DNA from: a virus
Taxonomy: Duplodnaviria; Heunggongvirae; Uroviricota; Caudoviricetes
IMG/VR virus record: IMGVR_UViG_2541047122_000022
DNA: 6,885 nt
Direction: 5' to 3' (one strand)
Positions 5,967-6,521 of the stretch are shown here, piece by piece (position 1 is the stretch's first letter; each line of letters opens with the position of its first letter). The position numbers and the translations under genes are program-made. The notes under the pieces were generated by a model, which saw only the letters and a list, made by a program, of their open reading frames with translations, had not been told where the DNA came from and searched no databases.

Positions 5967-6053
5967 CCGGATGCCGCGCCAGCGGCATGTAGGGGCAGCT
6001 CACAAAACGGAAAAAATTGTACGCTAAGCCTCGCCAGGTGAACTGAATTCATT

Positions 6054-6077
6054 CCGATATGGGAATTCCCATATCGG
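6054..6077. repeat. Perfect 24-bp palindrome CCGATATGGGAATTCCCATATCGG upstream of the hok promoter region
   Basis: Direct reading: 6054-6065 is the reverse complement of 6066-6077. No T-run on either side, so it is unlikely to be a terminator. Confidence 0.5.
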
Positions 6078-6184
6078 GCGAAAACGGTTTGCTGTAACGG
6101 CAGAGTTAAGTAGGATTGCTGCGGGTGCTTGAGGCTATCTGCCTCGGGCATGAACACCAACGGCAGATAGATAAAAGCCCCACC

Positions 6185-6265
6185 CGACTATAAATCGAAG
6201 TGAGGCCCCTATATGCTCGTCACATATAGATTGCCTCTTACGGACCGAAAGGTCAAGGAGAAGCA
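6185..6265 (-). ncRNA. Predicted Sok-like antisense RNA (approximate placement)
   Basis: Inferred from hok/sok family organisation: the antisense RNA overlaps the mok translation-initiation region. A candidate -35 TTAACA on the minus strand (rc of 6288-6293) was seen, but the -10 is unclear and the ends could not be fixed. Confidence 0.25.
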
Positions 6266-6425
6266 GGCTATGAAGCAGCAAAAGGCGATGTTAATCGCCC
6301 TGATCGTCATCTGTTTAATCGTCATAGTGACGGCACTGGTAACGAGGAAAGACCTCTGCGAGGTACGAATCCGAACCGGCCAGACGGAGGTCGCTGTCTT
6401 CACAGCTTACGAACCTGAGGAGTAA
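6213..6425 (+). CDS. Mok-like reading frame: in-frame upstream extension of hok (70 aa)
   Basis: ATG 6213 is in the same frame as hok and 57 nt upstream of its ATG; a GAGG lies upstream. This matches how chromosomal mok/hok pairs are annotated, as I recall. Confidence 0.4.
   Translation: MLVTYRLPLTDRKVKEKQAMKQQKAMLIALIVICLIVIVTALVTRKDLCEVRIRTGQTEVAVFTAYEPEE
6270..6425 (+). CDS. hokD: Hok/Gef-family type I toxin (small membrane peptide), 51 aa, HokD(RelF)-like
   Basis: MKQQKAMLIALIVICLIVIVTALVTRKDLCEVRIRTGQTEVAVFTAYEPEE is unmistakably Hok/Gef family. RBS AAGGAG 9 nt upstream. The hokD assignment rests on memory and on synteny with a dicA/dicC prophage. Confidence 0.9.
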   Translation: MKQQKAMLIALIVICLIVIVTALVTRKDLCEVRIRTGQTEVAVFTAYEPEE

Positions 6426-6493: not shown

Positions 6494-6521
6494 AACCCGC
6501 TTCGGCGGGTTTTTGTTTTTT
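6494..6521 (+). terminator. Rho-independent terminator at the 3' end of the hok mRNA
   Basis: Stem AACCCGC / GCGGGTT with loop TTCG, followed by TTTTGTTTTTT. Confidence 0.7.

Follow-up and report, generated by a model that had tools for sequence, protein, structure and literature searches.

A probable three-part recombination joint between paa and hok in an EHEC prophage, beside a palindrome that is most likely the vestige of a kilA-N gene

How a plasmid-type adhesin gene came to lie in a lambdoid prophage, and what the two palindromes at its right-hand edge are, are the questions raised by the DNA described here. The whole stretch analysed, called the window below, is a viral sequence of 6,885 nucleotides (Caudoviricetes; IMG/VR record IMGVR_UViG_2541047122_000022) and corresponds to the early-right region of a PPompW/CP-933O-type lambdoid prophage of enterohaemorrhagic Escherichia coli (EHEC), carrying paa and hokD. 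In the RefSeq annotation of identical DNA, paa, which encodes an AcfC-family adhesin, is followed by hokD. Two palindromic sequences lie between these genes, exactly where the initial annotation of the window had placed them: the hairpin ATGCCGC-gcca-GCGGCAT at 5971-5988, with arms at 5971-5977 and 5982-5988 (hairpin 1), and a perfect 24-bp palindrome, CCGATATGGGAATTCCCATATCGG, at 6054-6077. The former had been likened to the repetitive extragenic palindromic (REP) elements of enterobacteria and the latter proposed as a protein-binding site or as the scar left by insertion of the cargo.

We consider it probable (about 0.75) that this interval is a three-part recombination joint, made of a plasmid stub, a Tn3-family transposon end and phage DNA, lying beside an inherited phage element, and that the 24-bp palindrome is a relic of a kilA-N gene, most likely a vestige. 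The coordinates of all features are collected in Table 1.

The leftmost part of the joint is of plasmid type. In blastn comparisons with plasmid loci (L009-L011), the alignment runs from 4972/4976 to 5989/5994 of the window, and in the plasmid paa cassettes the IncF backbone continues beyond the equivalent of ~5991, where the window has the terminal inverted repeat (IR) of a Tn3-family element. The plasmid homology ends at 5991 because this IR starts at 5992. On IncFIB plasmids without paa, a conserved backbone block opens with the 19-mer of hairpin 1 some 0.8 kb past repA, and when these plasmids are compared with each other and with the paa plasmids, hairpin 1 is the exact point at which homology sets in. 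As read from these alignments, hairpin 1 is a stub of plasmid backbone, and about 22 bp of the IncF block are left in the window.

The middle part, 5992-6028, reads GGGGCAGCTCACAAAACGGAAAAAATTGTACGCTAAG and matches the sequence GGGGTCAGCTCACGAAACGGAAAAAATCGTACGCTAAG that adjoins a Tn3-family tnpA in L005, L007 and L008. The same IR abuts truncated or intact Tn3-family tnpA/tnpR genes on plasmids of E. coli, enterotoxigenic E. coli (ETEC) and Pseudomonas, and the stretch matches 436 plasmid records from many genera. In L005 and L008, tnpA ends in or at the IR, and in L007 the IR is followed by a resolvase gene and tnpA; the interior of the transposon lies on the TAAG side, away from GGGG (L005, L008). 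On the Pseudomonas plasmid (L008 1317-2321), IS5075, a member of the IS110 family, adjoins the Tn3-family IR, which probably accounts for the IS110-family annotations near several of the IR matches. The published IRs of Tn6768-71, GGGGTCGTCTCAGAAAACGGAAAAAATCGTACGCTAAG (PMC7371123), and the IRL of ISPa40 (PMC9952335) are close matches to 5992-6028. The window copy shares the GGGG start and the TAAG end of the 38-bp IRs of Tn21/Tn1721/ISPa40/Tn6768 type, but differs from the Tn3-family transposons themselves in being a solo remnant of one IR and about 10 bp. No second copy of the IR was found in the window, where the next-best match has 18 mismatches, and the window holds no transposase (no tnpA ORF), no resolvase and no recognisable target duplication. 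By these homologies the true junction marker is the Tn3-family IR situated between both palindromes, a feature absent from the initial annotation.

The right-hand part is phage DNA. The crossover-zone sequence CCTCGCCAGG, which follows the IR, also resembles the end of a small open reading frame (ORF) of related phages, ATCGCCTGGG, and the crossover falls within 6029-6040, a short stretch similar to both parents. The paa-less prophages L003 and L004 match the window from 6031/6040 on, palindrome included; they carry it as the variants CCG-TATGGG... and ACGATATGGG..., right after the stop codon of a 34-amino-acid hydrophobic ORF and before the same hok promoter. The cargo boundary is located 15-25 bp to the left of the 24-bp palindrome. 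Since this boundary lies left of the palindrome, and prophages without paa have the palindrome, the palindrome belongs to the phage backbone. The interval is therefore the right-hand boundary of the paa cargo, with both palindromes at or beside alignment breakpoints, as had been expected; the comparison with paa-less prophages confirms an insertion boundary close by, but assigns the palindrome itself to the shared backbone.

In IMG/VR, 124 occurrences of the 20-mer core of the palindrome were sampled, of which 81 precede the hok leader motif by 51 nt (75 copies) or 69 nt, and only 27 of these 81 are of the window (IR) type; this and the other sampled sets are drawn from the matches listed by the scans. 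The segment 6036-6084 occurs at 2174 places in E. coli, in 849 of 5426 genomes and up to 6 times per genome. About 70% of the sampled hok loci of the same type are without the relic, the small-ORF stop sitting directly at the same junction.

The 24-bp palindrome lies far outside what chance would produce, with arms of 12 where the best perfect palindrome in 300 shuffles of the window (dinucleotides preserved) had arms of 10. It folds with -18.3 kcal/mol as RNA (z = -3.9) and with -11 kcal/mol as DNA. Its right end is 11 bp from the proposed -35 hexamer (6089) and 46 bp from the Rfam sok/hok-leader match (6123), where the hok transcript is taken to start, so that the distance of about 45 bp to the hok promoter given initially was loose. 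A role as intrinsic terminator, already denied by the initial annotation, was rejected, because a T-run is absent on either strand (flanks GCGAAAACGG and AATGAATTCA); the terminator scan of the window gave calls at 5941-5954 and 6494-6511 only. The palindrome was also rejected as an operator of the phage's own cI/Cro, as a half-site search (<=2 mismatches) was empty near 1247-1322, the cI-cro intergenic region. Judging by the covariation pattern described below, a hairpin-forming element is more likely than a conventional duplex operator.

The palindrome has a counterpart inside a gene. Positions 6044-6084 of the window align over 41 nt (88%) with phage vB_EcoS-666R9 (L012 3090-3130), within the coding sequence (CDS) of a 257-amino-acid KilA-N protein, and the homology extends about 10 nt of flank past the palindrome. 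The reading frame agrees, with PFSPDMGIPISE*IQ in the window and ..ELSRDMGIPISELIQSF in the intact gene. The phage protein combines a Pfam KilA-N domain (residues 14-112) with a PADLOC BstA C-terminal domain (E = 3e-21), and its CDS, which runs opposite to hok, lies about 340 bp ahead of the hok leader, so that the synteny fits. Intermediate kilA-N relics of ~60 nt exist. The right-hand junction is common to all relic types, the left-hand junctions differ, and some relics upstream of hok are decayed (e.g. CCG-TATGGG... and CCGATGCGGGACTTCCCACATCGG). On the basis of the 41-nt homology, the same frame, the synteny and the intermediate relics, the 24-bp palindrome is identified as a kilA-N relic, that is, as the surviving 11-codon core of a kilA-N/BstA-like gene. 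The window copy is most likely a non-coding vestige that is still able to fold.

The parent genes were sampled independently of the palindrome, by means of the downstream QGTWVHP motif and a degenerate back-translation. Within the kilA-N domain the synonymous sites are saturated except in seven codons, GAT ATG GGR ATT CCC ATA TCG, which are frozen (GAT in 37/37, GGA or GGG only, ATT in 38/39, CCC in 36/39, ATA in 35/35 and TCG in 31/31). Other kilA-N clades have different yet self-complementary sequences, e.g. CCGATGTCGGAATTCCGACATCGG, CCGATGCGGGAATTCCCGCATCGG and CCGAGGTCGGAATTCCGACCTCGG, and a purely synonymous compensation is seen between TCGAAACGGGAATTCCCGTTTCGA and CCGAAACCGGAATTCCGGTTTCGG (ACG/CCC vs ACC/CCG), both of which encode ETGIPVS. 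Among 50 distinct kilA-N sequences, double-sided changes are present at 7 of the 10 stem pairs; 88% of the stem cells are paired, compared with 74.8% in shuffles, and 59 double-sided changes were counted, compared with 19.5. The covariation score is 0.333 vs 0.131 in shuffles, with none of 500 shuffles as high and slid controls at 0.03-0.06, these controls (shuffles and slid windows) being not phylogeny-aware. The two central positions of the hairpin show no co-variation, which is consistent with a 4-nt loop. The window copy is the commonest variant, CGATATGGGAATTCCCATATCG.

The site is marked by its folding energy as well. The sliding-window profile of 80 kilA-N sequences (<85% identical) exhibits one sharp dip, at the hairpin only, which reaches -14.3 kcal/mol in genes with the G-I-P motif and -9.5 in those without, on a background of -3.5 to -6.5. 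In a synonymous-recoding control, the real sequences gave -16.0 kcal/mol and the recoded ones -10.4, with 41/80 genes significant as against 7/80 for the control window. An unrelated hairpin occupies this site, 28-43 nt upstream of the GTW codons, in distant KilA-N genes without the G-I-P motif, namely those of Pseudomonas phage D3 (orf11), Planktothrix PaV-LD, Bacteroides LoVEphage, HK544 (gp62) and a Klebsiella phage. The 69 mismatches at the stems comprise 5 G-T/T-G and 20 A-C/C-A, and the sense and antisense folds are of -15.8 and -15.4 kcal/mol (p = 0.34). With equal stability of both strands and no enrichment of G-U pairs, an RNA element is not distinguishable from a DNA element. As their compensatory changes indicate, many phage kilA-N genes keep a hairpin-forming nucleic-acid element.

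This hairpin is apparently not described before. Rfam has no family that covers it (window searched at the gathering threshold, six kilA-N loci at E <= 1), no paper linking KilA-N with a palindrome was found in the literature, and GGGAATTCCCATA turns up in one unrelated paper only. Sites acting in cis inside the gene of their own protein are known from the pac sites in the terminase genes of P22, SPP1 and P1 and from the binding of HK022 Roi inside roi. Like those, the kilA-N hairpin is inseparable from its gene and conserved at synonymous positions; it differs from them in that base-pairing and not sequence is conserved, and in that its protein partner is only a candidate. HK022 roi was rejected as a precedent at the same site, since roi has no such palindrome.

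Taken together, these homologies and breakpoints would fit the following history. A Tn3-family transposon would have inserted right after hairpin 1, with its outer end toward paa, and paa, together with the plasmid stub, would have passed from a plasmid into the prophage by way of an illegitimate joint or of a cointegrate made by the Tn3-family element. All of the transposon but one IR and about 10 bp (5992-6039) would then have been deleted. From ~6040 on, the DNA is lambdoid-phage backbone, and the palindrome in it does not stem from the arrival of paa: the kilA-N gene, antisense just upstream of hok in related phages, has been reduced there to its 11-codon core.

Several points weigh against this account. 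The second IR, a target duplication and a left-hand transposon junction are all absent from the window, so that we infer the cointegrate route. About 17/20 identity to the hairpin-1 stretch (window 5962-5991) is present on the Aeromonas plasmid p1713-KPC (L006 ~2500-2530), just outside the outer end of that plasmid's own Tn3-family IR; this likeness exceeds chance, and the plasmid-stub model does not account for it. The status of vestige is a default, and the window orphan is perfect while other relics are decayed. E. coli genomes with the orphan segment (849) far outnumber those with the full-length kilA-N gene (137). Finally, orphans that are paired, or that lie inside unrelated genes in other phages, hint, on their sequences, at maintenance by selection.

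These orphans bear on the strongest alternative. Roughly a dozen unrelated phage contexts contain the 20-mer without any change, the chance expectation in the collection being far below one. Three related contigs (L015, L038 and L104) have an intergenic stretch in which the 20-mer CGATATGGGAATTCCCATATCG and another palindrome, ATAAAAACGGGAATTCCCGTTTTTAT, are separated by about 330 bp. In L015 (5709-5734 and 6046-6067) both perfect palindromes are centred on GGGAATTCCC and stand beside a T5orf172/MUG113 gene, and the DNA between them looks highly structured; a Pfam search of the gene beside this pair gave no KilA-N match. A Methylobacterium prophage gene of 66% GC (L077 13855-13915) contains two adjacent in-frame hairpins of KilA-N type (..APDMGIPISPPADPVTGIPVSG..). 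Its product belongs to an unrelated family of Methylobacterium prophage proteins of 390-414 amino acids (P0001-P0026); in the homologues the stems are kept and the loops vary, and three homologues are without the segment. A very AT-rich gene on the minus strand of L108 (1524-2810) encodes a giant-virus-like protein with zinc-finger, KilA-N and T5orf172 domains, and includes an unaltered 20-mer of the E. coli type as well as a partly duplicated stretch, VDMGIPIPGISSLKSDMGIPIS.

The alternative holds that the hairpin is a cis element travelling with the KilA-N domain, a candidate cognate recognition or self-immunity site, and that orphans are decoys or address sites for co-resident KilA-N/BstA-like proteins. 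The window 24-mer would then be a live orphan site that serves as decoy or in immunity, or that places hok/sok under KilA-N/BstA-like control. Taken as one proposal, this is possible by analogy, though we regard it as unlikely. The parent gene family has the BstA C-terminal domain, and the BstA locus contains a short cognate DNA element that neutralises the protein and is active in trans at high copy (PMC8585504). Hairpin stems that are clade-specific at a fixed position would give cognate specificity, and the excess of orphans over full genes, the paired copies and the stems retained in the unrelated Methylobacterium family all agree with it. The kilA-N hairpin is, like that element, aba, a short sequence in the coding region of a prophage DNA-binding/defence gene and differs between homologues. 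However, the BTP1 aba spans 63 bp, has CCCGCC direct repeats at its ends, overlaps the bstA start codon and is not a palindrome (Owen et al. 2021, PMC8585504), whereas the kilA-N hairpin is mid-domain and also present in kilA-N genes that carry other C-terminal domains and no BstA domain. The 24-mer is not the mapped BTP1 aba: their sequences and positions differ, and the equivalent site of BTP1 bstA is free of a hairpin. In addition, several of the relics upstream of hok are in decay, and the window-type orphan lineage is clonal, so that the perfection of its palindrome is uninformative.

Another alternative, to which we give clearly less credit, places the activity of the 24-mer in the rightward transcript: between paa (or the small ORF) and hok its RNA hairpin would stabilise a 3' end, mark a site of processing or cause a pause, or else the 24-mer would modulate the hok promoter from about -57. 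The stable RNA fold given above, the constant distance to the hok leader in most copies and the position directly after the small-ORF stop codon in paa-less phages would suit such a role. The hairpin has no U-run, however, about 70% of the sampled hok loci do without it, the comparison of strands and of G-U pairs in the kilA-N genes singles out no RNA strand, and the fixed distance is accounted for by shared ancestry.

Hairpin 1 is unremarkable by statistics alone: the window contains 10 hairpins of 7 bp, compared with 2.6 +/- 1.9 in dinucleotide-preserving shuffles (n=300), and the RNA fold has -16.2 kcal/mol (z-score -2.7). Its significance comes from its conservation elsewhere. On plasmids whose paa homologues are 85-89% identical, the stem is invariant and the loop variable (GCCA, GTCA, ATCA), whereas the stem of the terminator before it varies or has lost a part. 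Together with the differing left-hand contexts that all join exactly at hairpin 1 on IncF plasmids, and with the insertion point of the Tn3-family element 3 bp past it, this could suggest that hairpin 1 is functional, either by ending the paa mRNA a second time or stabilising its 3' end, or by attracting recombination to the border of the IncF block. We find this proposal doubtful, about as much so as the RNA role of the 24-mer, since hairpin 1 has no T-run 3' of its stem, 7-bp hairpins are common by chance, its invariance may merely reflect a strongly conserved backbone block, and on IncFIB plasmids it falls within an annotated small CDS. An 8-bp inverted repeat, TTTTTCCG at 5962-5969 and CGGAAAAA at 6008-6015, flanks hairpin 1 and is probably fortuitous, because its arms are split between the paa 3' flank and the Tn3-family IR.

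Each E. coli genome has hundreds of elements of the REP/BIME (bacterial interspersed mosaic element) class scattered over its chromosome. Hairpin 1 resembles them in being a short, GC-rich, imperfect palindrome 3' of a gene, and in its start, CCGGATGC, the only part shared with the REP consensus; its 3' arm and stem register (ATGCCGC/GCGGCAT) differ from that consensus, and it is not dispersed. A 36-nt query with hairpin 1 found 2985 places in complete E. coli genomes, of which plasmids hold 2372; the median per genome is one and the maximum 5, and a cross-species scan with the degenerate pattern CCGGATGCCGCNNNNGCGGCAT gave only scattered single matches in unrelated GC-rich genomes. Since it is present about once per genome, is mostly plasmid-borne and forms the left edge of the IncF block, hairpin 1 is a plasmid-backbone stub and not REP-like; neither palindrome is unique in E. 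coli (2985 and 2174 places), but the repeated occurrence of hairpin 1 is not a REP-like dispersal. The initial view of a dispersed REP-like hairpin next to a 24-mer formed by the insertion has next to no probability left, for although a cargo boundary does lie within 15-25 bp of the 24-mer, hairpin 1 is a single-copy, plasmid-borne sequence per replicon, and the 24-mer pre-exists unchanged in paa-less prophages, at the same distance from hok, and inside kilA-N genes.

The joint records the route by which a virulence-associated adhesin gene, paa, came into an EHEC prophage; a 22-bp IncF stub followed by a Tn3-family transposon end points to transposon-mediated transfer from plasmid to phage. 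KilA-N is a very widespread DNA-binding domain of phages and giant viruses whose function is poorly understood, and it heads BstA-like abortive-infection proteins. A frozen structured element in kilA-N coding sequence, with scattered orphans, provides a testable handle on recognition by KilA-N, and may show how BstA-like systems with canonical KilA-N heads separate self from non-self. If the recognition or decoy proposal were true, orphans would let a phage escape co-resident KilA-N/BstA-like proteins, or be addressed by them.

Table 1. Features of the window around the paa-hok joint, with positions in the 6,885-nucleotide stretch.
Feature	Position	Strand	Evidence or remark
paa cassette common to E. 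coli and E. albertii plasmids	4972..5991	+	85-89% identity
paa, AcfC-family adhesin, periplasmic solute-binding fold	5176..5934	+	ORF; RefSeq; Pfam SBP_bac_11 E = 5.5e-34
paa intrinsic terminator, stem 5936-5959 then TCTTTTT	5936..5966	+	inverted repeat; scan match 5941-5954 and T-run; fold
Remnant (22 bp) of conserved IncF plasmid backbone block, first 18 bp = hairpin 1	5970..5991	.	19-mer exact on >2000 E. coli plasmids
Solo Tn3-family terminal inverted repeat (37 of 38 bp; 1 base deleted, 2 substituted)	5992..6028	+	outer GGGG end toward paa
Some 10 bp from inside the transposon (tnpA 3' end, minus strand) and crossover zone with phage backbone	6029..6039	+	CCTCGCCAGG vs L005 CCTCACCAGG
Relic of kilA-N (BstA-like) gene, by homology	6043..6079	-	minus strand = PFSPDMGIPISE*IQ
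Perfect 24-bp palindrome, free-standing copy of the hairpin element of kilA-N genes	6054..6077	.	shuffles; covariation, codon freezing, energy and recoding in kilA-N genes
Inferred hok promoter TTGCTG-16-TAGGAT	6089..6116	+	position just before Rfam match; conserved at other hok loci
hok mRNA leader / sok region	6123..6272	+	Rfam RF01794 sok, 103.9 bits, E = 1.8e-23
mok/hokD reading frames (hokD 6271-6425)	6213..6425	+	ORF list; RefSeq annotation of hokD

The module downstream of the joint is a canonical hok/sok type I toxin-antitoxin locus, as judged by its Rfam sok match; the 24-bp palindrome falls outside this module. The hok promoter proposed by the initial annotation holds in its position and in its conservation at hok loci, but the consensus promoter scan of the window did not call it, so that it is placed by position only. 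In the paa-less prophage L004 (3194-4282), an IS481-family element is inserted between the palindrome and hokD. Together with the mobile-element protein listed beside hok in several phage records, this indicates that the neighbourhood of hok is a frequent insertion site.

On the other side of the cargo, a frameshifted fimbrial-protein pseudogene lies just 5' of paa (window ~4480-5015, RefSeq, identical locus). As the plasmid homology of the paa cassette begins only at 4972, the left part of the island is of other origin; its left boundary, 4286-4484, is a rough mapping. The copy of the prophage in O157:H7 strain PV15-279 (L001 3601-4914) has an IS1203/IS629 insertion that splits the replication gene, and the window, at ~2800-3100, is without it. 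The PPompW records differ by an indel of ~380 bp. The second longest perfect palindrome of the window, GAACATCGATGTTC, has 14 bp and is found at 1656-1669, inside the region of a ydaT-like gene.

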